Source of the DNA: Acutalibacteraceae bacterium
Lineage (GTDB): Bacteria > Bacillota > Clostridia > Oscillospirales > Acutalibacteraceae
Assembly (NCBI GenBank): GCA_045605085.1
Contig: JAZUPI010000004.1
Span: 44,114-108,113 of the forward strand
Reading direction: 5' to 3'
Length of the DNA stretch: 64,000 nucleotides
Within the stretch, counting starts at the first letter, position 1. The number at the start of each line of letters is the position of its first letter. This document shows positions 475 through 62,953 of this stretch, piece after piece. The notes under the pieces were generated by a model that saw nothing but the letters and a program-made list of their open reading frames with translations, did no database searches and had not been told where the DNA came from. The position numbers and the translations under genes are program-made.

Positions 475-2880
475 TTAACCTCTGTAAAGCTTCATTATTT
501 CTCTTACAGGACCTGCAAAGCATTCTGCAAGAGGTGGCAATGGATTTTCGTTCTTAAGGAAATCTGTAAATACCATACCCTTGTAATCATTTGCCATCTG
601 GAATTTTGCAATGGTCTGAATAAGCTGTTGCTTTTTATCCATATTAGCAAGATAAGTACAATCTTCAAAGAACACTTCTACCTTGGACGTTGTTTTTGCA
701 CTTACTGTAACCTGAAGAGCCTTGCCACATTTTTCTACCTTTGCAGCTACCTCTTTACCGTTAACCTTAACCTTAACTTCACCTTCAACAATGTCCTTAA
801 ACTTAATAACATATGTTCTCTTTTCAGGTGCAACAGAGCTGTCGCCCTCTGCTTTTTCAATCTTGAAGGAAACCTTTGAGCCTTCTTCTGCAACAGTAAA
901 TGCAGTTTTTAGGTACTCACCGTTCTGATATGAAAGTGTTTCACCATCGTCCTCGTAAAGAGTAAAGGTGTTGTTTCCTCTGTAAACCCAAAGCTCAAGT
1001 GTTTCAGGGTTGGAGCAATCGTTAGTCCTGTCGTTTGCACTCATAGGAATAATTGCACCTGCCTTAGCAAGTACAGGCATAGCTTCAATATCACGATACA
1101 TCTTAATAAAGTGATTGCCGCTATAAATTCTGTCTGTGAAAATATCTGTATATCTTCCTTCAGGCACCCACACGTTTACACCTGCAAGGTTTGTGTCTGA
1201 TGAAGTATGCTCTGTAATTGGTGCAACAATAAGCTCTGTACCAAAGAAGAACTGATTTTTGCATTCGTATGAGCGCTTATCGTCAGGGTATGCGTAGTAC
1301 ATAGGCTCACAAATTGCTCTGCAATCCATATGTGTACGGTAGTTCATTGTGTAGATATATGGAAGAAGCTTGTGTCTGAAACGCAAAGCATCCTTAGCAA
1401 TTCTTTCAACAGGTCCACTGTAGTTCCAAGGCTCTTTGCCCATAAACTCATTGTTTGTTGAATGAAGTCGCATAACAGGACTGAACACGCCAAGCTGCAC
1501 CCAACGAAGGTAAAGCTCGTCGTCCTTCTTGCCCATACAGTGACCACCGATGTCGTGGCTCCACCAAGGGTACGCAATGTTCGATGCAGTAGCAGTAAAG
1601 CCCGGCTGGAAGTCAAGACTTGACCAGGTTTGTGTTGTGTCACCACTGAAACCTAACGGATAACGCTGACTACCTGCACCACAGAAACGTGAAAGTATAA
1701 GTGGTCTGTGGTTATTCCTTGCGTTATCAAGGAAATGATAGTGGTTAAGAGCCCACAATGGATCTAAGCCGGGAACTGCAGTTCTTGTACCCTGCTGCCA
1801 GTCAATCCACCAGAAATCAACGCCCATTTTTTCAAATGGATGGTGAAGAATATCGAAATAGTTCATTGTGAACTTCTTATCAGTAATGTCGAACTTAACA
1901 GGCTCTTTTTTCTCAGGGTCCTGACCCATTGCTTTACACATATCCTCGTACTGATCCTCGAACCAACGAACACCCATTGATGGATGAAGGTTAAAGGTTA
2001 CGCGATAGTTGTCATCCTTAAGCTTTTTAAGGAAGCCTGCAGGATCCGGGAACAAATCTGTATTAAAGCTGTAGCCGGTCCAACCTGTTGACCAGAAGTC
2101 GTACACAAATTCCATAAAGTTTTTGTGCGGATGAATCTTGTGGCTATCTTTACCGAACTTATCTTTAATATCAACCCAGTGCCAGTCCATATCTACAGTT
2201 GCAACTGTAATCGGAATTTCTTCCTCTTTGAATTTATCCATAAGGCTGAGGTATTCACTTTGTGAATATGCCTTATATCTGCTCCACCAGTTAGAGAGAG
2301 CATAACGTGGAATAAGTGGCACCTTGCCTGTTAATTTATATAAGTCTGTAGTGGCACCAATATAGTCGTTGCCATAAGCAAAGTAATACTCGTCTGTACC
2401 CTTATGCTCTCTTGGAAGAATTGAGCCATCCTCCTTAAGCACAAGAGTTTTACTGTCATCAAGGATTGCCACACCATTACGTGAGCAAACACCATCGTTA
2501 AGTGTAATAACGCCAGCAGTAATGTCAAGTGTACGGCAAGTACCCTTCAGGTTACCTGCTGTGTAGTTTGTTACAACCCTACCATCACGAAGCTTGATGC
2601 GAAGCATTTTCTGTGCTTTGAGCGAATAAAGGAAGTTTGCCTTTGTTGTTTTAATTTCTATAGTATCCCTTGACTCATTAACCTTAAATTCAGGCTCACA
2701 GAAATCACGGAACCACACACTTTGTGTAGGCTCGTCGCAGAATTCTCCTTTAGCTTGCACCTCTACACGCAAAAGACAAGGTGTAATAACCGTAAATCTT
2801 GTGTTTTTACGTACAATTACATGGCTTTTATGTGCCACAGGAGAGCATTCAATTTTAAATCTTTTCGCAAATTGTTCCAT
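475..2880 (-). CDS. glycoside hydrolase family 31 (alpha-glucosidase/alpha-xylosidase type)
   Basis: 801-aa ORF with GH31-like segments (TVDMDWHW, VDFWWIDWQQG, GFSGDTTQTWSSL, WWSHDIGGH). Specificity cannot be assigned by eye. Confidence 0.75.
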   Translation of the reverse strand: MEQFAKRFKIECSPVAHKSHVIVRKNTRFTVITPCLLRVEVQAKGEFCDEPTQSVWFRDFCEPEFKVNESRDTIEIKTTKANFLYSLKAQKMLRIKLRDGRVVTNYTAGNLKGTCRTLDITAGVITLNDGVCSRNGVAILDDSKTLVLKEDGSILPREHKGTDEYYFAYGNDYIGATTDLYKLTGKVPLIPRYALSNWWSRYKAYSQSEYLSLMDKFKEEEIPITVATVDMDWHWVDIKDKFGKDSHKIHPHKNFMEFVYDFWSTGWTGYSFNTDLFPDPAGFLKKLKDDNYRVTFNLHPSMGVRWFEDQYEDMCKAMGQDPEKKEPVKFDITDKKFTMNYFDILHHPFEKMGVDFWWIDWQQGTRTAVPGLDPLWALNHYHFLDNARNNHRPLILSRFCGAGSQRYPLGFSGDTTQTWSSLDFQPGFTATASNIAYPWWSHDIGGHCMGKKDDELYLRWVQLGVFSPVMRLHSTNNEFMGKEPWNYSGPVERIAKDALRFRHKLLPYIYTMNYRTHMDCRAICEPMYYAYPDDKRSYECKNQFFFGTELIVAPITEHTSSDTNLAGVNVWVPEGRYTDIFTDRIYSGNHFIKMYRDIEAMPVLAKAGAIIPMSANDRTNDCSNPETLELWVYRGNNTFTLYEDDGETLSYQNGEYLKTAFTVAEEGSKVSFKIEKAEGDSSVAPEKRTYVIKFKDIVEGEVKVKVNGKEVAAKVEKCGKALQVTVSAKTTSKVEVFFEDCTYLANMDKKQQLIQTIAKFQMANDYKGMVFTDFLKNENPLPPLAECFAGPVREIMKLYRG

Positions 2881-3057
2881 AGTATACTCCTTTTGTCGAA
2901 ATTATCCTGATATTATAATACATCATATTACTATTAAAGTCAACAAAGGCATTTCATTCCAATATAACCAAATAGTAGCCTCTTTTTTCTACACTTGCTA
3001 TCGTTGACAAAGTATGCGCTATTTGGTAAAATTATTGTTTGTGAAGGAGATGTTTCT

Positions 3058-4557
3058 ATGATTTTCCAAAGAAAAATCGGCTTTGATAACAATATGTATC
3101 TCGAAAAACAGTCCGAGCAGATTTTAAAGCGTGTTGACGATTTCGGTGGCAGACTTTACCTTGAATTAGGTGGTAAGCTTTTCGACGATTTCCATGCTTC
3201 ACGTGTTTTACCGGGCTTCAAGCCAGACAGTAAGCTTCAGATGCTTCTTAAACTCCGTGAGCACGCTGAGGTTGTTATTGTTATATCCGCAAGTGACATT
3301 GAAAACAACAAAATACGCCGTGACCTTGGCATCTCTTACGACAGTGACGTTTTAAGACTTATGGACGCTTTCACAAGTGCAGGTCTTTTTGTTGGCAGCG
3401 TTGTTATTACACAATTTGATGGTCAACCATCAGCCCTTAAGTTCAAAGAAAAGCTTACAGGTCTTGGCATAAAAGTCTTTATGCACTACCCTATTGAAGG
3501 TTACCCATATAACGTAAAGAAAATTGTAAGTGAAGAGGGCTTCGGCAAAAACGAATATATAGAGACATCACGCCCTGTAGTTATTATGACTGCTCCGGGT
3601 CCCGGTAGTGGTAAAATGGCAACGTGTCTTTCACAGCTTTACCACGATAATTTAAGAGGCATAAAGGCAGGATACGCAAAGTTTGAAACCTTCCCTGTAT
3701 GGAACCTTCCTCTTAAGCACCCTGTTAACCTTGCCTACGAGGCTGCAACTGCAGACCTCAACGACGTTAATATGATTGACCCGTATCACCTTGAAGCATA
3801 CGGCATTTCTACAGTTAACTATAACCGTGACGTTGAGGTTTTCCCTGTACTTAACGCTATGTTTGAAAAAATTGAAGGCGAAAGCCCATATAAGTCACCT
3901 ACAGATATGGGTGTTAATATGGTTGGCTACTGCATTACAGACGACGCACTTTGTTGCAAGGCTTCTCACGAAGAAATAGTAAGACGATATTTCACAACAC
4001 TTTGCGACAAAAAAATGGGTCAGCAAAATGACAAAACAATCGCAAAAATTGAAAGCTTAATGAACCAGGCAGGTATTTCTGCAGAAAGTGTTCGTCCCGC
4101 AGTAAAAGCAGCCATTTCCAAAAGTCAGGAAACAGGCAACCGTCCTGCTGTTGCAATAGAGCTTCCTAATGGTGAAATTGTTACAGGTAAAACAAGTGAC
4201 TTGTTAGGAGCTGCATCTGCTGCAATACTTAACTCTCTTAAGGTTGTTTCCGGTATTGATGACAAGGAACTTCTTATTCAGCGTGAGATTATTGAACCTA
4301 TTCAGGCTTTAAAAACAGGCATATTAGGTAACCATAACCCTAGACTTCATACCGACGAAACACTTATTGCCCTTACAATGAGTGCAGTTACTAATGAGAA
4401 AGCAAAAAAAGCCGTCGACGTTCTCAAGGAGCTTAAAGGCAGCGAAGCACACGCAACGGTAATTCTTTCACAGATTGACCGTGACACCTTCAGAAAATTA
4501 GGTATCAACCTCACCTGTGAGCCTCACCACGAAAGCAAAAAGCTTTACCATAAATAA
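3058..4557 (+). CDS. UPF0371/DUF1846 family protein
   Basis: Matches the remembered UPF0371 pattern throughout (GGRLYLELGGKLFDDFHASRVLPGF, TAPGPGSGKMATC, GYAKFETFPVWNLPLKHPVNLAYEAATADLNDVNMIDP, SPTDMGVNMVG). Start moved to ATG 3058, which follows GAAGGAGA. Confidence 0.85.
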   Translation: MIFQRKIGFDNNMYLEKQSEQILKRVDDFGGRLYLELGGKLFDDFHASRVLPGFKPDSKLQMLLKLREHAEVVIVISASDIENNKIRRDLGISYDSDVLRLMDAFTSAGLFVGSVVITQFDGQPSALKFKEKLTGLGIKVFMHYPIEGYPYNVKKIVSEEGFGKNEYIETSRPVVIMTAPGPGSGKMATCLSQLYHDNLRGIKAGYAKFETFPVWNLPLKHPVNLAYEAATADLNDVNMIDPYHLEAYGISTVNYNRDVEVFPVLNAMFEKIEGESPYKSPTDMGVNMVGYCITDDALCCKASHEEIVRRYFTTLCDKKMGQQNDKTIAKIESLMNQAGISAESVRPAVKAAISKSQETGNRPAVAIELPNGEIVTGKTSDLLGAASAAILNSLKVVSGIDDKELLIQREIIEPIQALKTGILGNHNPRLHTDETLIALTMSAVTNEKAKKAVDVLKELKGSEAHATVILSQIDRDTFRKLGINLTCEPHHESKKLYHK

Positions 4558-4600: not shown

Positions 4601-4619
4601 GCGTTTTGTGTTAAAATTT

Positions 4620-4830
4620 TTTCATCGGTTTATGGAATCAGGTGCAAATCCTGAACGAGCCCGTCGCCGTAATATGCAAACAGTTCTTTTCTATCAGCAG
4701 ACCGCAAAGCTGAGAAAAGCCATTGGCTAGCGCCGAGAAGGCGAAAAGAATGCATAAAGTCGAAATACTTAACCGATAATTACCTTTTCTGAATGCGAGC
4801 GCCTGAATGAAAAGGGACAAAAAACATTTC
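4620..4830 (+). promoter_or_regulatory. cobalamin (B12) riboswitch
   Basis: Conserved cores are GGTGCAAATCC (4641-4651), GCCCGTCGCCGTAA (4659-4672), B12-box-like AGCCATTGG (4718-4726) and GAGAAGGCG (4735-4743). The closing stem is ATCGGTT 4624-4630 with AACCGAT 4771-4777. A downstream CCTTTTC...GAAAAGG hairpin (about 4784-4815) precedes the RBS of the next gene. Confidence 0.8.
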
Positions 4831-4849: not shown

Positions 4850-5317
4850 ATGAAAAAAACAAACAACAAATCCTTGTTGTCTGTTATCCTTTCATTTGTG
4901 CTTATTGCGGTTATAGCATTTACAATGTTCGGATGTACCGGCAACAAAAACACAGACGAAACTACTACAGAGGCTACTGTACAAACAACAGAAGCGAACG
5001 TACCCGTTGTTATAGGTGAAGGCGAGGTTCAAATAACCTTCACCGTCACACACAAAGATGGTACAACAAAGGTCTTTACTGTCAACACAACAAAAGAAAC
5101 TGCCACAGTTGGTGAAGCTTTGCAAAAAGCAGGGTTAATATCAGGTGATATTGGAGACTATGGGTTATACGTTAAAACTGTTGACGGAGAAACTCTCGAC
5201 TACAACACCGACGGCATGTATTGGGCTTTTTACGAAAACGGCGCATATGGTGCAAAAGGTGTAGACCAGACAACCATTGACACAGCAGTAAAATATGAAT
5301 TCAAAGCAGAAAAGTAA
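4850..5317 (+). CDS. DUF4430-like secreted lipoprotein (candidate cobalamin-binding protein)
   Basis: Signal peptide with lipobox FTMFGC (Cys29). C-terminal pattern GLYVKTVDGE...MYWAFYENGAYGAKGVD resembles DUF4430. Sits immediately downstream of the B12 riboswitch, with RBS AAGGAG. Confidence 0.6.
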   Translation: MKKTNNKSLLSVILSFVLIAVIAFTMFGCTGNKNTDETTTEATVQTTEANVPVVIGEGEVQITFTVTHKDGTTKVFTVNTTKETATVGEALQKAGLISGDIGDYGLYVKTVDGETLDYNTDGMYWAFYENGAYGAKGVDQTTIDTAVKYEFKAEK

Positions 5318-5831
5318 AGTACACATTAAAGAAATCGCCATTTTTGGTATGCTTGGTGCTTTGATGTATGCTTCCAAGGTCATCATGGAGGCTTTACCAA
5401 ATATTCATCTTATAGGTGTGTTTGTTGTTGCAACAACAGTTGTTTACAGAAAAAAAGCATTGTATCCCATATATATTTTTATCTTTCTAACGGGACTGCT
5501 TAACGGATTTGGTACCTGGTGGATACCCTACCTTTATCTGTGGGCTGTGTTATGGGGGGCGGTTATGCTGTTACCCAAGAATATTGAGGGGAAAAAAACA
5601 GCACCTTTGATATTTGCTGTTGTTTGCTCGTTGCATGGCTTTTTGTACGGAGTTTTGTATGCACCCTTTCAGGCTATTGTGTACAACCTCAATTTTGAAG
5701 GTACACTCGCGTGGATTGCAACAGGCCTACCATTTGACATAACCCACGGCATAAGTAATTTCATATGCACATTGATACTTTCGGTGCCTATTATAACTGT
5801 ACTTCGTAAAGCAGAAAAAATGGTTAAATAA
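5295..5831 (+). CDS. ECF transporter S component (substrate-capture subunit; B12-regulated, CbrT-like candidate)
   Basis: 178-aa polytopic membrane protein of ECF S-component size and architecture. Overlaps the upstream lipoprotein gene by 23 nt, indicating co-transcription behind the riboswitch. Confidence 0.55.
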   Translation: MNSKQKSKVHIKEIAIFGMLGALMYASKVIMEALPNIHLIGVFVVATTVVYRKKALYPIYIFIFLTGLLNGFGTWWIPYLYLWAVLWGAVMLLPKNIEGKKTAPLIFAVVCSLHGFLYGVLYAPFQAIVYNLNFEGTLAWIATGLPFDITHGISNFICTLILSVPIITVLRKAEKMVK

Positions 5832-6979: not shown

Positions 6980-7136
6980 AAATTCACCTGCTTTCTGATT
7001 TTATTTTATCAAAAAGCAAAATGCCGGTCAATCTATGAATCGTAGAATCAGCAATTATCGGAGAGCAAGCACAATCCAAGGGATGATAAGCTATCGCATC
7101 ACAACAGCTTCTTTTATAATCAACACGTAGCGTTCC

Positions 7137-7254
7137 AAAATTTTGAATTTTGTATTTTGAATTTTCAATTTCCCGCGAAGCTCTGGCAACTGGCATCTGG
7201 CATCTTTACAATCGCAACGCAGTTACGAAATTTTGAATTTTAAATTTTCAATTT
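7137..7254. repeat. mosaic intergenic repeat, locus A (reverse orientation relative to locus C)
   Basis: From left to right: AT-rich heptads 7137-7171, GCGAAGCTCTGGC 7175-7187, heptads CTCTGGC/AACTGGC/ATCTGGC 7181-7201, box TTTACAATCGCAACGCAGTTAC 7205-7226, and a second AT-heptad block GAAATTTTGAATTTTAAATTTTCAATTT 7227-7254. The same modules are seen at about 30.8 and 61.7 kb. Confidence 0.85.
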
Positions 7255-15729: not shown

Positions 15730-15785
15730 TAATCTGTTGGGAGTTTTATTGTAAGCGCATTTTGAATTTTACATTTTTTACGCTA

Positions 15786-15814: not shown

Positions 15815-15820
15815 ACCCTT

Positions 15821-16160
15821 TGGTAAAATGGGCAGTTGCGGATACGGTTTACCGTAGACGAGGAAAGTCCGGGCATCACACGGCAGGGTAACTGCTAACG
15901 GCAGCCGAGGGTAACCTTAGGGAAAGTGCAACAGAGATATACCGCCGATTTTTTCGGTAAGGGTGGAAAGGCGAGGTAAGAGCTCACCGGCGTGGTGGAG
16001 ACATCACGGCCATGTAAACCCTACCCGATGCAACACCGACCGGGGAGTTTGCCGGACAGCGATTTTTCGCATCCCCAAAGGGTGGCTAGAGTGTTATGGC
16101 AACGTAACACGTAGATAGATGATTGCCTTAAACGACAGAACCCGGCTTACATTTTTACCT
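15821..16160 (+). ncRNA. rnpB: RNase P RNA (bacterial type A-like)
   Basis: Universal P4 strands GAGGAAAGTCCGGGC (5') and ACAGAACCCGGCTTAC (3'). GGTAAGGGTGGAAAGGCGAGGTAAGAGCTCACC is typical of type A. P1 is formed by GGTAAAATG at the 5' end and CATTTTTACC at the 3' end. Confidence 0.9.
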
Positions 16161-16161
16161 G

Positions 16162-16196
16162 AAAGAGGAGAGCTTCTCTCCTCTTTTATTTTTTGT
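16162..16196 (+). terminator. rho-independent terminator of rnpB
   Basis: Stem AAAGAGGAGAG-CTT-CTCTCCTCTTT, followed by TATTTTTT. Confidence 0.85.
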
Positions 16197-30731: not shown

Positions 30732-30770
30732 TTCCATCAGGAATTAAGGGGCTACGCTGTTTTTATAAAA

Positions 30771-30920
30771 GATGCCAGTCGCCAGCCACCAGAGCTTCGC
30801 ATAACTTTGTTTATTGAACAAATAAAATTGTGTGATAGCTTTAAATTTTCAATAATTTTAACTTATGAGCAACTTACAATTGCAATGCAGTTCCGAAATT
30901 TTCAATTTTGAATTTTTAAT
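30771..30920. repeat. mosaic intergenic repeat, locus B
   Basis: GATGCCAGTCGCCAGCCACCAGAGCTTCGC at 30771-30800. GTGTGATAGCTTT core at 30830-30842. Inverted box TTACAATTGCAATGCAGTTCC at 30874-30894. AT heptads GAAATTTTCAATTTTGAATTTTT at 30895-30917, abutting the deoD RBS. Confidence 0.8.
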
Positions 30921-33202: not shown

Positions 33203-34501
33203 ATGAGAATGTACGATATTATAAAGAAAAAACGTGATGGTGCTGCCCTTTCAACAGAAGAAATCAATTTCTTTATAAAAGGCTACGTTGACGGCACTAT
33301 ACCGGACTATCAGGCATCTGCCTTGTGTATGGCAATTTTCTATTCAGGTATGACGGAAAAGGAAACTGCTGACCTTACCCTGAGTATGGCACACAGTGGA
33401 GATACCATTGACCTTTCGCAATTTGGTATGCTTACAGTTGACAAACACAGCACAGGTGGTGTTGGTGACAAAACTACGCTTATTGTAGCACCTATTGTTG
33501 CATCACTTGGTTGCATTATGGCAAAAATGAGTGGCAGAGGCTTAGGACACACAGGTGGTACAATAGACAAATTGGAATCTATTGAAGGCTTTAATACTCA
33601 GCTTTCTGCAAAAGAGTTTTTTGATACCGTAAACAAAACAGGCCTTGCTGTTGTAGGTCAGACAGGAAACCTTACACCTGCCGACAAAAAGCTTTACGCC
33701 CTTCGTGACGTTACTGCAACTGTAGACAGCTTACCACTTATTGCATCAAGCATTATGTCAAAAAAATTGGCAGCAGGAGCACATACAATAGTTTTAGACG
33801 TAAAATATGGCTCAGGTGCTTTTATGAAAACACCTGTAGATGCACAAGCGCTTGCAACCGAAATGGTTAAAATCGGCAACAACTGTGGCAGAAACACATC
33901 TGCAGTTATTACTAATATGGACGTTCCTTTAGGCAACAACGTAGGAAACGCCCTTGAGGTAAAAGAGGCAATAGATGTGCTTCGCGGCAACGGACCTGAC
34001 GACTTGAAAACAGTTTGTCTTGCCCTTGCTACACAAATTGTTTCCCTCTCAAAGGGGATTGATAAAAACCAGGCACAAGCTCTTACTGCAAACGCCCTTG
34101 AAAGTGGCGACGCCTTCCAAAAATTCAAGGAATGGATAGGTGCACAGGGTGGCAATACAGAATGGATTGAAAACACTGCGCTTTTCCCGACAGCTACACA
34201 TAAATATGAAATTAAGTCAACCTCAAACGGCTTTATTTCCCACATGGATGCAGAAAAAATCGGCATATGCGCCGTAATGCTTGGAGCAGGCAGAGAAACA
34301 AAAGCCGACGAAATTGATATGAGTGCAGGTATTGTTATGCAGAAGAAAACAGGTGATAAGGTTTGCGTTGGCGATACTATAGCAACCCTTTATACCTGCA
34401 AGGAAAGCGCAATTAAAAACGCAGAAGGAAAATTTCTTGAGGCAATAAGCATTTCAAATAAGAGGCTTGAAAACCAAGATTTAATTTACAGAATAATATA
34501 A
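33203..34501 (+). CDS. pdp: pyrimidine-nucleoside (thymidine) phosphorylase
   Basis: MRMYDIIKKKRDG...VDKHSTGGVGDKTTL...SGRGLGHTGGTIDKLE signature. Confidence 0.9.
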   Translation: MRMYDIIKKKRDGAALSTEEINFFIKGYVDGTIPDYQASALCMAIFYSGMTEKETADLTLSMAHSGDTIDLSQFGMLTVDKHSTGGVGDKTTLIVAPIVASLGCIMAKMSGRGLGHTGGTIDKLESIEGFNTQLSAKEFFDTVNKTGLAVVGQTGNLTPADKKLYALRDVTATVDSLPLIASSIMSKKLAAGAHTIVLDVKYGSGAFMKTPVDAQALATEMVKIGNNCGRNTSAVITNMDVPLGNNVGNALEVKEAIDVLRGNGPDDLKTVCLALATQIVSLSKGIDKNQAQALTANALESGDAFQKFKEWIGAQGGNTEWIENTALFPTATHKYEIKSTSNGFISHMDAEKIGICAVMLGAGRETKADEIDMSAGIVMQKKTGDKVCVGDTIATLYTCKESAIKNAEGKFLEAISISNKRLENQDLIYRII

Positions 34502-34566
34502 AAAATGCGCAGCCGAAGCCACGCACAAAAACACATAGCTCAACACTTTATAATTTCAACAAAAAT

Positions 34567-34598
34567 AAAAAGCTTCTTCATATACGAAGAAGCTTTTC
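34567..34598. terminator. bidirectional terminator hairpin
   Basis: Stem AAAAGCTTCTTC / GAAGAAGCTTTT, overlapping the stop of the minus-strand amidohydrolase gene. Confidence 0.65.
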
Positions 34599-35366
34599 TG
34601 CGTTTTTGTAATATATTTTTTCTTTTTCGCTTTCTGAAAGGTCAAGGGTTTCTATCATACCTATATCCCATGAGGGTGCGTGCCAAGGACAGTCGGATCC
34701 AAAAAGAAACCAATCCACACCTTTTTTATCAAGTATTTTCTGCGCACGAGGCTTAGGCATTGACGCGTAGCCGAATGCAGTATCAAAATAAACAGGAACG
34801 TCACAAAGGTATTTTATTACATCTTCTCCCATGTTAGCCGATCCCCAATGAGCGCACACCATTGGCGAATCTATCCACTTAGCTGCCTTTCTCAAGCGTT
34901 CGGGTGTTGCATGGTATGGTGGTGGGTAACCAATATCCTCTCCTGCATGAAAAAGAACAATAAGACCTAATTCCGATGCCTTTTTGTACAAGGGCTTCAT
35001 TTTTTCATCATCAACAAAAAATTGCTGATATTCAGGGTGGAATTTTATCCCCTTTACACCTGCAGCCTTAATTCTTTCAAGCTCTTCAAGGGCATTTTCT
35101 GCCCAAGGGTAAACAGAGCCAAAGGGTATAAGGCTTTCGCTTTCTAAAGAAATTATATAATCGTTTACTGCCTTTTGTTGTTTTTCATTTGTTGCAATGG
35201 CAAGGACAACACTTTTGTCTACACCATCCTTTTCCATAAGCTTTACAAGCCCCTCTGCAGTACCATCTGTTTGTGGAATAAGCCCCCCACCAAAAAAGCT
35301 TAGTTTTTCCATAGTTGCGTTTGCAATCTTAGGAGGGAATGCGTGAGTATGAAAATCTATTATCAT
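34578..35366 (-). CDS. amidohydrolase-2-type TIM-barrel metal-dependent hydrolase
   Basis: MIIDFHTHAFP N-terminal HxH, then later HPEYQ, FHAG and GSDCPW motifs. Confidence 0.7.
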   Translation of the reverse strand: MIIDFHTHAFPPKIANATMEKLSFFGGGLIPQTDGTAEGLVKLMEKDGVDKSVVLAIATNEKQQKAVNDYIISLESESLIPFGSVYPWAENALEELERIKAAGVKGIKFHPEYQQFFVDDEKMKPLYKKASELGLIVLFHAGEDIGYPPPYHATPERLRKAAKWIDSPMVCAHWGSANMGEDVIKYLCDVPVYFDTAFGYASMPKPRAQKILDKKGVDWFLFGSDCPWHAPSWDIGMIETLDLSESEKEKIYYKNAEKLLRI

Positions 35367-35605
35367 TTTTTCGCCTTCTTTTAAATTATAAGAAATATAA
35401 TAATACTGTTAGCAAAAAAATTCAATATATTAAATATCTCAAAAATTATTACGGAATGGTGGTGGGTAGTTCTTTTACCTCTTTTCTTCAGTTGGTGAGA
35501 AGAAAGTTTTAATAGATTAGATAACAGATAAATATGCTAAAAACTCTCCACTTCGTTTAATAATGATTTGTTGATTTTATCAACTTTATGTGATATACTT
35601 ATAGA

Positions 35606-35770
35606 TGCGACACAACTTAATTTTGGGACAGACTATAAGAGAAGTGTTTTTTATTTCGGTAAAAACACATTCTCTGTTTTGGCGTTCTCTTGTAGTTTGT
35701 CAAAAGTTGTGTCGCAGCAAGTGGAGTTATGTGTTTTTCGTGCGTAGCTTCGGCTGCGCATTTTTTGTTT
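35606..35770 (+). ncRNA. candidate structured leader or small RNA (unclassified)
   Basis: Promoter TTGATT (35571-35576), 17-nt spacer, TATACT (35594-35599). Extended hairpin with P1 35607-35618 paired to 35704-35715, P2 35627-35643 paired to 35685-35701, and apical stem 35644-35651 paired to 35661-35668. Terminator TGCGTAGC-TTCG-GCTGCGCA (35741-35760) plus T-run. Confidence 0.4.
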
Positions 35771-35785
35771 TTAGGGGGAATATTC

Positions 35786-36154: not shown

Positions 36155-36982
36155 TTACAACCCCAATTCCCTTTTAAGGTTTCCACCAAGTATTGCTGCC
36201 TTTGCCTCTTCGGTTATAGGAAGATTTTTAATTCTTTCTATTGCCTTTAACGTATAGTCCGCATCCTTGTATGGAAAATCAAGACCAAAAATACTTCTTT
36301 CGTAGCCTGTCTGATGAATGAGTGTGCAAAGGTCGTCATCCGTTAAAGACCAGGCACCCTGACGAATATTTCCCATATCGTCTGTTTCCATACCAATGCT
36401 TGTCCAGCCTGCAAAGGTGTTATGTATTTCTCCACGGGAATTGTTGTTCATTATAAGAAGTGCTTCCCTGAAAAAGCTGTAGCCTCCCATATGCTCCATA
36501 CTGAAACGGAGCTTAGGGAAATTAAATGCAACCTCATCAAAAAGAAGCATGCTGTAATCTGCGATTCTGTGCCAATGCAGGCCCGTGTGGAATGAAAGAA
36601 AAAGATTTTCTTCCTCTGCCACTCTGTAAACTCTGAAAAGCTCTTCCGAGTCCACCTTTACTTCCTGGTAGGCAGGGTGAATTTTTATACCCAAAAGACC
36701 AAGCTCTGCAATTTCGCGCACCTGATCTTCAAGATTATTTTTCGTGAAATCTACTGAACCGAAGGCAACAAGCTGATTTTCATTTTTTACTTCCTTCGCA
36801 ATCCAATGGTTAGCATTTTGCCCTTTGCTGACATCATACATATCCATTTGGTTCTGAAAAGGCGCAAAGCAAACAGCCTTCTCAATATGGCAATCATCAA
36901 GAAGTTTTTTTAAGCAATCTTTATCAGCATTAGGTTTTGTATTTTTAGGAAACAGATGTGCATGATTGGCATAAATTTTCAT
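36155..36982 (-). CDS. amidohydrolase-2-type TIM-barrel metal-dependent hydrolase (second, divergent copy)
   Basis: MKIYANHAHLFP N-terminal HxH, IKIHPAYQ, FHTG and GLDFPY. Confidence 0.65.
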   Translation of the reverse strand: MKIYANHAHLFPKNTKPNADKDCLKKLLDDCHIEKAVCFAPFQNQMDMYDVSKGQNANHWIAKEVKNENQLVAFGSVDFTKNNLEDQVREIAELGLLGIKIHPAYQEVKVDSEELFRVYRVAEEENLFLSFHTGLHWHRIADYSMLLFDEVAFNFPKLRFSMEHMGGYSFFREALLIMNNNSRGEIHNTFAGWTSIGMETDDMGNIRQGAWSLTDDDLCTLIHQTGYERSIFGLDFPYKDADYTLKAIERIKNLPITEEAKAAILGGNLKRELGL

Positions 36983-37045
36983 ATGTACCTCCGGAAATAG
37001 TTAGGATTTTTGGAGCTATGCTGTTATTATAAGATTCGCATACAT

Positions 37046-37126
37046 TTAGTTTACTGATTAACTGAAGTGATGCGAAGCCTATCCCTTTAATTAATCAGTA
37101 AATTAAGCGTATACGAAGACGAAAGC
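37046..37126. repeat. 26-nt imperfect inverted repeat enclosing a repeat-family core (locus D)
   Basis: Arms are TCGCATACATTTAGTTTACTGATTAA (37046-37071) and TTAATCAGTAAATTAAGCGTATACGA (37101-37126). The enclosed ACTGAAGTGATGCGAAGCCTATCCCTTTAA resembles the reverse complement of 7078-7110. Confidence 0.65.
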
Positions 37127-60624: not shown

Positions 60625-60661
60625 AAAGACATCGTATGACGCAAGCCATACGATGTTTTTT
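60625..60661. terminator. bidirectional rho-independent terminator
   Basis: Stem ACATCGTATG / CATACGATGT with an A-run upstream and a T-run downstream. Confidence 0.8.
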
Positions 60662-61664
60662 AATTATATTTATTTTCCAATATTTCTTTTATAACAGGCT
60701 CAATAACCTGCGCCATTCTGTAAAAGCCTAAATCGTTAGGATGACAGCAGTCACAGGTACAAGCGTGACGGTCGGTTTCTCCGAAAAAGCCTTGTCCGTC
60801 AATGAAATAAACATTTTCGTCACCTGAATTTTTCGCATTAAGGTAAGTGTTGTAAATGACCTCACGCCTCCTGTCACCTTGTGGGTCATAGTCAAAATCA
60901 GGCTTTGTCATAATTACAACAGGCAAATCAGGATTTTTCTCTCTTATCCTTTTAAAAAATTTTTCGTGTGTCTTTTCGAGATGCTCTGCATCGGGTGCGT
61001 TATGGTCATAGTCATAAACAAAAATACTCATAGGAATTGTGTTTATGTAATCGGCAATTTCCAGCTCTCCCTTTGCCCCACCTGAAAAACCGAGATTGTA
61101 GTAATCTACATCAAGGTGCTGACTTATAAGAGCGTTGTAAACGTTAGTCACCCTACAACAACATCCACCCTCTGTAATTGATGAGCCGTAGTAAAGCATA
61201 GGTGGATATTTGTATGGTGTTGGTGGAAGAATTTCTGCATCATCCTCGATGGAAATGATGAAATCTTCAATAACCTCATTGCGAGGAAGCCATATTGTTA
61301 CGTCTTCCATTTCGTTATCTTTAAAGAATTCTGCCTCGCACTCCATAGTTTCGTAGTCCTGTGGGTGCAGAAGTCCCGCAAACCTTGCAGTCTGTCGGTT
61401 ACCTATCATTACATTTGCAGATTGACAATCAAAAATAGACATACCAATATCCCAATTAAGTGTAGAAAAAACCATTTTTAAGGTTATTTTAGATGAATTT
61501 GTACGCAAACAAATTCTTGCTCCGGGACAACGTCTGCCAAGGCCTGCAAGTGACGGCACTGCATCACGTACAGATTGAGGAAGTCTTTCAAGTCTGCCTG
61601 TTTTTTCAAAAAACGGCACACCGTGTACTTCTATGGGCTTGTCTTTGTAACTGTATGTTTTCAT
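60660..61664 (-). CDS. SGNH/GDSL-family hydrolase with N-terminal beta-sandwich domain
   Basis: Block I YGSSITEG, block III GGAKGE region, and block V CHPNDLG. Confidence 0.7.
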   Translation of the reverse strand: MKTYSYKDKPIEVHGVPFFEKTGRLERLPQSVRDAVPSLAGLGRRCPGARICLRTNSSKITLKMVFSTLNWDIGMSIFDCQSANVMIGNRQTARFAGLLHPQDYETMECEAEFFKDNEMEDVTIWLPRNEVIEDFIISIEDDAEILPPTPYKYPPMLYYGSSITEGGCCCRVTNVYNALISQHLDVDYYNLGFSGGAKGELEIADYINTIPMSIFVYDYDHNAPDAEHLEKTHEKFFKRIREKNPDLPVVIMTKPDFDYDPQGDRRREVIYNTYLNAKNSGDENVYFIDGQGFFGETDRHACTCDCCHPNDLGFYRMAQVIEPVIKEILENKYN

Positions 61665-61698
61665 ATTATCACCAATGAAGTCAGAAGTGAGGAGTTAA

Positions 61699-61822
61699 GT
61701 AACTGCGTTGCAATTGTAAAAGCCGCCAGTCGCCAGATGCCAGATGCCAGTCGCCAGATGCCAGTCGCCAGATGCCAGATGCCAGATGCCAGATGCCGGA
61801 TACCAGATGCCAGAGCTTCACA
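61699..61822. repeat. mosaic intergenic repeat, locus C: 22-nt box + 13-unit heptad microsatellite + GCCAGAGCTTCAC box
   Basis: GTAACTGCGTTGCAATTGTAAA at 61699-61720. Thirteen contiguous 7-nt units at 61725-61815, comprising GCCAGAT x7, GCCAGTC x3, GCCGGAT, ACCAGAT and GCCAGAG. Then CTTCAC. Confidence 0.9.
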
Positions 61823-62135
61823 AAGCTGTTGAAAAGTAATAATTTTCAAGATTTTGATGAAGAACGCAGTTTTAACACCCGAAGCTGTATTAAGATACTG
61901 CAAGTAGGCTAAAACCAAGTTGTTCACAAAACTGTTGAGAAGTAATAATTTTCAAGATTTTATGAAGAACGCAGTTTTAACACCCAAAGCTGTCTTGACA
62001 TACTGCAAGGGTAGAAAACAAGTTATTCACAAAACTGTTAAGAAGTAATAATTTTCAAGATTTTGATGAAGAACGCAGTTTTAACACCCGAAGCTGTATT
62101 AAGATACTGCGAGGGGGGCAAAAACAAGTTATTCG
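61817..62135. repeat. three tandem copies of an approximately 103-106-bp non-coding unit
   Basis: Unit starts (TTCACAAARCTGTT) are at 61817, 61923 and 62026, with a truncated fourth start at about 62132. Each unit carries AATAATTTTCAAGATTTT and the hairpin GCAGTTTTAACACCCRAAGCTGT...ATACTGC. Confidence 0.9.
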
Positions 62136-62149
62136 CAAAATATTGAAAA

Positions 62150-62953
62150 TTATTTCCCGAGTTCGAGAGTGCGCTGATATGCCCTTTTAACTGCATTCAT
62201 TGCACTGGCACGGAATGCACCTTCTTCAAGGGCTTTAACACCCTCAATGGTGCTACCGGCAGGAGAGCAGACTGCATCTTTAAGCTTACCCGGGTGCTCA
62301 CCTGTTTCGTTTAACATGGTAGCAGAGCCGATAAGTGTTTGTGCTGCGTAAAGAAGTGCTTTGTCCCGTGGAAGACCACATTCAACGGCACCGTCTGCAA
62401 GTGCCTCACAGAACATAAAAACGAATGCAGGGCCACAGCCTGAAACACAAGATGCAGCATCAATTTTATCCTCATCAATTCTGTCAAGGACGCCTGCATA
62501 CTTCATCGCACTTAAAAAGCCGTCAAGGTCTTCCTTTGAAACAAAGTCGTTTACTGTATAAAGTATCATACCCTGACCAACTGCAACAGGCATATTGGGC
62601 ATAATTCTGATTACAGGACAATCCACCTGTGCCATAGCACTTATGGAAGCAAGACTGACCCCTGCTGCCATTGAAACAAGTGTAAAGTCGGTAGTTCTAT
62701 CCTCAAGAACAGGTGCAATTTTCTCAAAAAGAGTTTTAAGCATCTGTGGTTTAACGCCCAGAAAGATATAGTCGCAGTTCAGAACAATATACTCTGCATC
62801 AGCAATATTAACGTCCGTTTCGTCTGCGAAAGCTTTAACTTTCTTTGTGTCGGTATCAAAAACAAAAATATTTTCTGCACCAACTGACTTTATTGCTGCT
62901 TTAGCAAGGGCTCCACCCATATTGCCACAGCCTAAGAAACCAATTTTTTCCAT
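62150..62953 (-). CDS. proC: pyrroline-5-carboxylate reductase
   Basis: IGFLGCGNMGGALA Rossmann motif and the C-terminal PAGSTIEG signature. Confidence 0.9.
   Translation of the reverse strand: MEKIGFLGCGNMGGALAKAAIKSVGAENIFVFDTDTKKVKAFADETDVNIADAEYIVLNCDYIFLGVKPQMLKTLFEKIAPVLEDRTTDFTLVSMAAGVSLASISAMAQVDCPVIRIMPNMPVAVGQGMILYTVNDFVSKEDLDGFLSAMKYAGVLDRIDEDKIDAASCVSGCGPAFVFMFCEALADGAVECGLPRDKALLYAAQTLIGSATMLNETGEHPGKLKDAVCSPAGSTIEGVKALEEGAFRASAMNAVKRAYQRTLELGK

Follow-up and report, generated by a model that had tools for sequence, protein, structure and literature searches.

Mosaics of short repeats in intergenic DNA are well studied in Proteobacteria (REP/BIME, NIME, ERIC) and in cyanobacteria (STRR/SDR), and are barely described in the uncultured Clostridia dominant in animal guts. 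REP/REPIN elements are tied to RAYT (PMC3116915), the dRS3/RS arrays of Neisseria are dynamic and include hypothesised recombinase sites (PMC1797815), and over-represented intergenic heptamer arrays of obscure function in cyanobacteria, Xanthomonas and Beggiatoaceae have been attributed to slippage (PMC2670836, PMC4692102, PMC4679880). The subject here is a mosaic of 7-nt arrays and 22-nt boxes in a 64,000-nt stretch of an Acutalibacteraceae genome (contig JAZUPI010000004.1), referred to below as the window, where it occupies loci at 61.7 kb (A), 7.2 kb (B) and 30.8 kb (C), with a fourth locus at 37.0 kb. With moderate confidence, we regard it as part of a selfish, non-autonomous, non-coding mosaic repeat family of Oscillospirales gut bacteria (Acutalibacteraceae, Ca. 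Fimenecus) whose heptad arms would expand by slippage, a reading that draws on the many near-identical copies in unrelated spacers, their preference for gene 3' ends, the presence or absence of entire units, their nesting and their lack of coding capacity. The family is apparently undescribed in Rfam and in the literature searched, its architecture being of an already known sort.

In the basic unit, 7-nt repeats (heptads) stand in a tandem array that is followed by GG, a mini-hairpin (3-6 bp, loop of 3 nt) and ATTRTAA, everything from GG onward making up the 22-nt box. Every true copy has (C)GG and a strict 7-nt tandem array before the box. The array unit varies by copy (AAATTCA/AAATGCA, GCAAAGT/GCAAAAC, GAAAGTT/GAAAACG, CAGAATG, GAGGAGT, GGCAAGT, AATGAAT), several types stand side by side within one genome, and by eye most are rotations or one-step variants of an AAARTKC-like pattern, which suggests common descent followed by homogenisation within arrays. 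In a second type of unit, (GCCAGNN)n is followed by AGCTTCGC. What comes after the box differs: a GC-heptad unit closed by AGCTTCGC, as in the window, other modules, or a second, inverted box with its own heptads, this last arrangement giving a compact palindromic pair in L030, L087, L098 and L107 (L plus a number labels a related genomic locus from relatives; L117 is JAZMQL010000054). Units are chained in tandem in L056, L034, L055 and window locus B, and they are mixed with further dispersed modules: a 106-nt hairpin module, a core module and a module CTGTAAGGG...CCCTTACAG with terminal inverted repeats. The order and orientation of modules vary in the window and in related loci alike, as a first-pass annotation of the window had proposed, and at 30.8 kb the box is, as it also said, inverted relative to the heptads. 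That account is corrected here in that the basic unit is the heptamer array together with its box, and in that 106-nt repeats are part of the same mosaic. It had overlooked the AT-rich heptad arrays (AATTTTG type) adjoining boxes at loci B and C, the three degenerate boxes (one each at B, C and 37 kb) and the 3.1 tandem copies of the 106-nt repeat that directly follow the locus A heptads (61817-62140).

The hairpin in the box was examined on cores chosen solely by an upstream heptad array and ATTRTA(A/G), blind to pairing, with the 22 nt before the motif inspected. Complementary stems recur among the variants (AAC/GTT, AACGC/GCGTT, GACC/GGTC, GTC/GAC, GGCAC/GTGCC, GGAAGC/GCTTCC) around a 3-nt loop, while stems of at least 4 bp arise in 5% of shuffles and of at least 5 bp in 1%. 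Because the variant stems differ yet stay complementary, the box is best described as GG, mini-hairpin, ATTRTAA, a pattern that the degenerate boxes of the window also fit.

Within the window, GTAACTGCGTTGCAATTGTAAA is matched at three mismatches or fewer at three sites, one in each of loci A (exact), B and C (Table 1), and in none of 100 shuffles; a profile made from 34 distinct foreign copies picks out these three sites and no others (E 7e-8 to 9e-7). GCCAG heptads at the same loci give 14 dimer matches against 0.54 expected, and the terminal box GCCAGAGCTTCRC is found four times against 0.04 expected, once at each locus and once at 57-69. The recurrences of box, heptads and terminal box reported in the first pass are therefore real. 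All three modules stand together at three intergenic loci, where none would be expected by chance, and a fourth locus, at 37.0 kb, has the core and a degenerate box. Of its proposed downstream core, the 37-kb copy is genuine, the 16-mer ATGCGAAGCCTATCCC occurring exactly also beside box units in L003 (twice), L019 and L102, whereas the copy placed at 30830-30842 shares about eight bases and is at chance level; the 33-nt core at three mismatches or fewer occurs in the window nowhere except 7078-7110. That chance-level copy, and the fact that tandem 7-mers are simple sequence, would speak for low-complexity DNA that is similar by chance, or for an assembly artefact, as the origin of the whole pattern. 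We attach next to no weight to this explanation, which is effectively refuted by the shuffles, the foreign-copy profile and the cross-genome scan that follows, the same architecture being present in independent assemblies (RGIG, MAGScoT, ENA, Logan).

An exact-pattern scan with AACTGCRTTGCRATTGTAA, taking one genome per species across 185,579 species, matched at least 112 loci. Twelve matches in unrelated phyla or conserved coding sequence were rejected as chance matches because all lie inside long open reading frames (ORFs) and lack heptads. True copies number at least 104, in 28 metagenome-assembled genomes (MAGs) labelled Acutalibacteraceae, Ca. Fimenecus or 'Clostridia bacterium' (Oscillospirales gut MAGs, with deer, goat and yak gut as named hosts), and they stand in unrelated gene contexts, so that the dispersed family suspected from the window alone does exist. 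Among the matches listed, JAZNTU, JAZSGB and JAFTUP have 13 copies each; within JAFTUP, and likewise within JAGAMK, copies on different contigs have near-identical flanks. About 22 of the at least 104 copies are no more than roughly 100 nt away from a true contig end, a placement to be expected of a multicopy repeat that breaks assemblies, and with about one fifth of its copies so placed the family fragments metagenome assemblies and is a source of mis-binning and mis-annotation.

Searches of Rfam returned only RNase P and a cobalamin riboswitch for the whole window at gathering thresholds, noise alone for loci A and B at permissive E-values, and no match on the modules of 18 related loci. In the literature searched, the repeat sequences matched only unrelated primers, and nothing on Acutalibacteraceae repeats was found; viral contigs scanned for the box gave no matches, nor did BLAST of locus A against plasmids or of locus B against phages. 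The modules are thus neither confined to the window loci nor assignable to a known Rfam family (Dfam lay outside the comparison), and the first-pass statement that the family has no recognised name still stands.

The mosaics sit in intergenic DNA, mostly just beyond gene ends and terminators, and have no gene of their own. Among the matches listed, 19 copies lie between convergent genes (enriched) and 6 between divergent ones (depleted), 56 face a gene 3' end versus 37 that do not, and tandem gene contexts show no strand bias (18 versus 17). Arrays begin directly after intrinsic terminators in L022, L044, L023, L071 and L002. The four window loci are all intergenic, flanked by genes for an OGG glycosylase, a helix-turn-helix protein, an ABC transporter, a nucleoside phosphorylase, an amidohydrolase and a histidine phosphatase. 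The neighbouring genes of copies show no functional coherence, and Pfam assigned only housekeeping enzymes to the genes between the two boxes in L070.

Enrichment downstream of genes would also fit units that are transcribed in untranslated regions and act as structured RNAs, whether as 3'-end stabilisers (as proposed for REP) or as small RNAs. Consistent with this, an alignment of eight copies of the 106-nt module predicts a long imperfect hairpin of 27 pairs, six of them kept via double changes and some being G-U pairs on the gene-sense strand, and the 37-kb element folds better than shuffles (Table 1). However, all six compensatory changes come from one divergent copy, the box and heptad units of loci A to C show no structure in excess of shuffles (z = +4.0, +0.3 and -0.4, respectively), the entire 485-nt spacer of locus A reaches z = -1.6, orientation is unbiased with respect to transcription, and Rfam has no match; a role at the RNA level is in our judgement very unlikely. 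The locus A unit in fact folds far worse than shuffles as a single strand: the heptad arrays avoid self-pairing. A REPIN-style hairpin model is not applicable to loci A to C because their folds do not beat shuffles, and for these copies the structured-RNA reading was rejected on the same ground.

Comparison of relatives shows that syntenic sites differ by whole units while the flanking genes are 96-98% identical, and whole-unit gain or loss is seen across syntenic comparisons with flanks of 90-98% identity. For instance, in L065 two AGCT sequences enclose 116 nt made up of GC heptads and a CTGTAAGGG...CCCTTACAG module, where L044 shows a single AGCT and lacks the block; at the 3' end of mnmE, the site is empty in L040 but holds 720 nt of inserted DNA in L007 and the 106-nt module in L023; at a site common to L104 and L108, the units of the two differ and point in opposite directions; and about four units of three heptad types in L055 correspond to a single unit in L024, with flanks 98% identical. 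As turnover is far faster than that of the flanking genes, the family is a possible strain-typing marker.

The same comparisons bear on whether heptads and box might be cooperative sites for a chromosomal protein, of ribbon-helix-helix or nucleoid-associated type, serving chromosome organisation or regulation. The ribbon-helix-helix omega repressor of pSM19035 reads 7-bp repeats, and a strict 7-bp register, arrays in direct and inverted orientation and a box core identical across at least 28 MAGs would suit such a protein. The box in reverse orientation, moreover, carries TACAAT/TATAAT, and one promoter-like match of 9/12 (CTGGCA-18-TACAAT, 7183-7212) uses it as a -10 element, antisense to the neighbouring gene. 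Yet heptads are diverse even within a genome (AAATTCA, GCAAAGT, GAGGAGT, GGCAAGT, AATGAAT, GCCAGAT), and a single sequence-specific binder is hard to reconcile with units that differ so widely between copies; copy positions are not conserved among close relatives, and the neighbouring genes, as noted above, show no coherence of function. We consider protein-binding arrays unlikely. The preponderance of copies facing gene 3' ends also speaks against a general promoter role, and the box as a promoter for the whole family was set aside; promoter and terminator scans gave nothing convincing.

The spacer of locus A, 485 bp long (61665-62149), separates two genes on the minus strand, one for a GDSL/SGNH hydrolase (60660-61664; best homologue 90% identical, best JGI-only homologues about 60-69%) and proC (62150-62953), and the purine-rich remnant next to the box lies, on the opposite strand, in the leader of the hydrolase gene (ATG at 61664). 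The protein collection does not include the species, judging by the 90% of the best SGNH homologue and by the absence of the exact ProC sequence. GAGGAGT/GAGGAAT heptads also precede the box in L019 and L031, with syntenic remnants in L113 and L117. The tract of 13 GC-rich heptads is the largest array of its type seen, 30 other copies (related loci and window) holding 1-5 units, and with its higher-order period of 21 nt it looks like a local expansion. The window and two relatives whose SGNH is 89-90% identical all retain the gene-proximal box at this locus, in diverged form (TTTACAATTGCAACGCAGTTAC, TTATAATTTCGACCGCAGTTCC and TTTTATAATCGTGTAGCCCC), accompanied by 13, 0 and 1 GC heptads, respectively, and by 3, 2 and about 3 copies of the 106-nt module.

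Such a tract might be a contingency locus, in which slippage 70-160 nt upstream of the SGNH start tunes transcription or leader function, the model being the 7-bp repeats upstream of Haemophilus hmw1A; phase variation dependent on heptanucleotide simple sequence repeats is documented (PMC8262952, PMC12721329). Its outlying length, the differing unit numbers among the three species, its place upstream of the SGNH gene on the transcribed side and a terminator scan that predicted none inside the proC-SGNH spacer (the sole candidate overlaps the proC stop codon) are all compatible with this. On the other side, elsewhere, units of this type stand at the 3' ends of genes and in spacers separating unrelated housekeeping genes, so that the family as a whole does not consist of contingency loci; the promoter scan gave no correctly oriented candidate at locus A; and the SGNH protein, a predicted esterase, does not resemble a typical phase-variable surface antigen. 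Phase variation is thus a minor possibility, and a phase-variable leader true at locus A alone could leave the nature of the family unchanged.

For a selfish family, the conserved box would be the recognition site of a trans-acting DNA enzyme encoded elsewhere (a recombinase or one of HUH/Y1 type) or, alternatively, the substrate of recombination between copies, and either process would add, remove and invert units, as proposed for REP/BIME and the neisserial dRS3/NIME. Replication slippage would lengthen and shorten the heptamer arms, which would account for the 13 units at locus A against 1-5 in other copies. The elements in the window are probably passengers, and if the downstream SGNH-hydrolase gene is affected at all, this would be incidental to the insertion in its leader. 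We know of no phage or recombinase that targets the box; as an integron attC or dif site the box was rejected, there being no consensus fit by eye and the stems being variable. A more specific version, to which we give only a small chance, would have the heptamer array and box as a tiny mobile element, copied unit by unit beside existing units by a chromosomally encoded enzyme: a candidate HUH/Y1 nuclease, an IS110-like recombinase or an RNA-templated route would recognise GG-hairpin-ATTRTAA, and the heptamer tail would be a product of the reaction rather than of simple slippage. If true, this would be a new class of repeat, propagating unit by unit, in gut Firmicutes and a Gram-positive counterpart of REP/RAYT or dRS3.

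Several observations weigh against a selfish family. ORF clustering and tblastn linked no transposase, RAYT or recombinase to it in about 0.9 Mb of related loci: all-vs-all clustering of the 777 ORFs near copies yielded only common paralogue families (ABC transporters, surface proteins), and tblastn with IS608 TnpA and E. coli RayT sequences, a weak test, gave no match. The first-pass remark that no transposase accompanies the copies accordingly extends from the window, where the flanks are housekeeping genes, to these loci, where no transposase-like ORF recurs. AGCT is the only clean direct repeat among the indels, and deletion through microhomology is equally possible there. No whole-element hairpin at loci A to C goes beyond shuffles; the canonical stem is 3 bp and is broken in some variants (AAC/ATT in window locus C, L056 and L094); and the apparent invariance of the box is partly an artefact of the search, since copies were collected with an exact pattern. 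Lastly, three species keep the gene-proximal box of locus A, which contains TAYAAT, at comparable distances from the ATG; selection for promoter function, instead of selfish persistence, could be the reason.

Table 1. Repeat-family features of the window, grouped by locus (positions are those of the 64,000-nt window).
Position	Strand	Feature	Remarks
Locus A
61683..61698	+	Purine-rich degenerate heptad remnant agaagtgaggagttaa (GAGGAGT type)	Read directly; just 5' of the box
61699..61720	+	Canonical 22-nt box GTAACTGCGTTGCAATTGTAAA: mini-hairpin AAC-TGC-GTT, then ATTGTAA	Pattern and profile match
61724..61814	+	13 tandem GC-rich heptads GCCAGAT/GCCAGTC, higher-order period 21 nt	GCCAGNN units counted
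61809..61821	+	Terminal box GCCAGAGCTTCAC	Overlaps the end of the last 106-nt unit
61817..62149	-	106-nt module, 3.1 tandem copies	Fills the remaining spacer and adjoins the proC stop codon
Locus B
7228..7254	-	AT-rich heptad array, AAATTCA/AAATTTA type, before the box	Begins beside the stop codon of the OGG-type glycosylase gene
7205..7226	-	22-nt box, 1 mismatch	Pattern and profile
7175..7204	-	Three GC heptads and terminal box GCCAGAGCTTCGC	About 3 GCCAGNN units at 7182-7205; terminal box 7175-7187
7139..7171	-	Second AT-rich heptad array, part of the second of two tandem units	Same tandem layout in L056
7114..7136	-	Degenerate box GGAACGCTACGTGTTGATTATAA, stem AACGC/GTGTT, loop TAC	Closest: GGAACGCTAYGCGTTGATTATAA in L003 and L071
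7078..7110	-	'Downstream core' module GATGCGATAGCTTATCATCCCTT...	Related modules elsewhere are outer ends of long inverted repeats
Locus C
30748..30770	+	Degenerate box GGGGCTACGCTGTTTTTATAAAA	AGGAATT heptad remnant before it (30739-30747); 73% identity to 61690-61744
30771..30800	+	Three GC heptads and terminal box ACCAGAGCTTCGC	About 3 units at 30774-30794; terminal box 30788-30800, 1 mismatch
30873..30894	-	22-nt box, 3 mismatches	Inverted relative to the 30748 unit
30897..30920	-	AT-rich heptad array joined to the inverted box	Ends at the ribosome-binding site of the PNP_UDP_1 gene
37-kb locus
37012..37033	+	Degenerate box GGAGCTATGCTGTTATTATAAG, stem AGC/GCT, loop TAT	Compare GGAGCTACGCCGTAATTATAA in L061 and L106
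37035..37117	+	Hairpin with 37-nt arms, 16-mer core ATGCGAAGCCTATCCC (37070-37085) in the loop	Fold z = -3.2 versus shuffles
Elsewhere
15742..15778	+	Small remnant TTTTATTGTAA, then AT heptads	RNase P RNA gene about 40 nt downstream; family membership tentative

The other modules of the mosaic have histories of their own. The 106-nt module is present in 2-3 copies at the syntenic proC-SGNH spacer in L113 and L117, and as a single copy at a non-orthologous site, directly after the mnmE stop codon in L023 (612-733), beside box and heptad units. Each 106-nt unit holds AACTGCGTT, the first nine bases of the box core (61863-61871, 61968-61976 and 62072-62080, minus strand), which hints at shared ancestry of module and box, the profile score there being weak (E about 2). 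In other genomes the core module lies outermost in inverted repeats some 120 bp long. In L117, the syntenic proC-SGNH spacer (2630-3340) contains an insert of about 700 bp, in which two inverted repeats, about 120-134 bp long and 88% identical, enclose a 132-aa DUF559 (Vsr-like endonuclease) ORF; the outer ends of these repeats resemble the core module, and a repeat of this type lacking the ORF is found in L023 and L034. The L117 insert may be a small endonuclease-carrying mobile element and the ORF-less copies its miniature derivatives. A further sequence, starting GTGCGGGTGTCCGGTGGACACCTCTGCGAAGCAGAAGCACCGACCGA, is inserted in post-box hairpin modules in L008, L032, L064, L081, L095 and L096 (RGIG8575) and in L001, L045 and L084, and contigs frequently stop at this insertion; it starts with GTGCG and has entered stem-loops, and may therefore be the 5' end of a group II intron (class C-like) present in many copies.

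Around the 37-kb locus, a motif ggaatggtggtgggtagttcttttacctcttttcttca at 35440-35510, within a 788-bp spacer, resembles modules ggtggtgggtggtat / ataccacccacc and cgtggtggtgggcagttctcttacc that occur near box units in L019, L031, L034, L071 and L097; it may be a further dispersed module or an unannotated RNA, one with no Rfam match at the gathering threshold. A 37-nt inverted repeat (34495-34531 and 35735-35771, 89% complementary), each arm of which is terminator-like (GCGCAGCCGAAGC...), encloses 1.2 kb with an amidohydrolase gene (34578-35366), and a paralogous amidohydrolase gene (36155-36982) adjoins the 37-kb repeat locus itself. The remnant at 15742-15778, which can also be read as TTATTGTAA followed by AATTTTG-type heptads, precedes the RNase P RNA gene (15820-16165; RF00010, 258 bits), which is 94% identical to those of JAZSGB and JAZNTU and so places the source among gut bacteria of Acutalibacteraceae type. 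Cyanobacterial RNase P genes carry STRR heptamers, a parallel that is probably coincidental. The cobalamin riboswitch (RF00174, 44 bits) lies at 4609-4791, upstream of ORFs at 4850-5831.

The family is worth a specialist description and is not startling; a larger question would need the propagating enzyme. The combination of a strictly conserved hairpin box with freely diverging heptamer arrays offers a bait for the enzyme or binding protein responsible, and the 13-unit tract upstream of the hydrolase gene is a concrete site for asking whether arrays modulate expression.

Among described systems, NIME are alike in architecture only: there too many families of variable blocks are bounded by a conserved box of about 20 bp that contains a small inverted repeat, the units form gene-free chains in intergenic DNA, unit number and array length at syntenic sites differ among close relatives, and a trans-acting recombinase has been proposed as the driver (PMC1797815). 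The box here is unrelated, however, the sole dRS3-like match (ATTCCC-N8-GGGAAT, one mismatch) lying inside a gene and at chance level; the blocks are mostly tandem heptamer arrays rather than RS elements of 50-150 bp; and the host is a Gram-positive anaerobe. REP/BIME/REPIN elements are likewise short, extragenic, highly repeated (at least 104 copies in 28 MAGs for the present family) and non-coding, with a single, inverted-pair or mosaic-cluster arrangement and a location at gene 3' ends (PMC3116915). Each REP is an imperfect palindrome that can form a hairpin; its counterpart here would be the mini-hairpin of only 3-6 bp with a triloop, which has six different complementary stems among the variants but a canonical stem of 3 bp that some copies break, and the units have long heptamer tails. 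The inverted doublet of REPIN is not the rule, locus B being a tandem pair and inverted minimal pairs being those of L030, L087, L098 and L107; and, where REP elements flank a single-copy RAYT (Y1 transposase) gene, no recurrent ORF was found near copies here, nor any match in the weak tblastn search of about 0.9 Mb.

The STRR arrays of cyanobacteria, and the GGGAATC and TAACTGA arrays of Xanthomonas and Beggiatoaceae, share with this family dispersed intergenic 7-nt arrays, several unit families, copy numbers that differ among relatives and a proposed origin by slippage (PMC2670836, PMC4692102, PMC4679880). Regular capping by a specific box, as seen here, is absent from those descriptions (PMC2670836, PMC4692102, PMC4679880). 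The phyla and unit sequences also differ (Oscillospirales, with AAATTCA, GCAAAGT, GCCAGAT and others, set against the cyanobacterial units). Elhai et al. in 2008 reportedly described SDR elements of 21-27 nt inside heptamer arrays, nested in one another, an arrangement that would be the closest architectural parallel.

Pneumococcal BOX, composed of boxA (59 nt), n copies of boxB (45 nt) and boxC (50 nt) in fixed order and forming a stable stem-loop, is similarly a modular, non-coding, intergenic repeat of a Firmicute with one module in variable number; it is set apart from 7-nt arrays and 22-nt boxes of variable order and orientation with no significant fold of the whole element at loci A to C. 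A miniature inverted-repeat transposable element has terminal inverted repeats, a target-site duplication and a related autonomous insertion sequence; observed here are one 116-nt indel flanked by an AGCT direct repeat and some modules (CTGTAAGGG...CCCTTACAG) with terminal inverted repeats, and no parent insertion sequence was found in related loci or in phage, plasmid or viral collections. The first-pass likening to BOX or REP/BIME thus holds for the general kind, a modular, dispersed, intergenic repeat, and not for membership of either proper: by defining features the family is not REP/REPIN, BOX or NIME. Its nearest architectures are NIME and the cyanobacterial heptamer arrays with their small dispersed repeats, from which its sequence, its host and the regular pairing of array and hairpin box set it apart.

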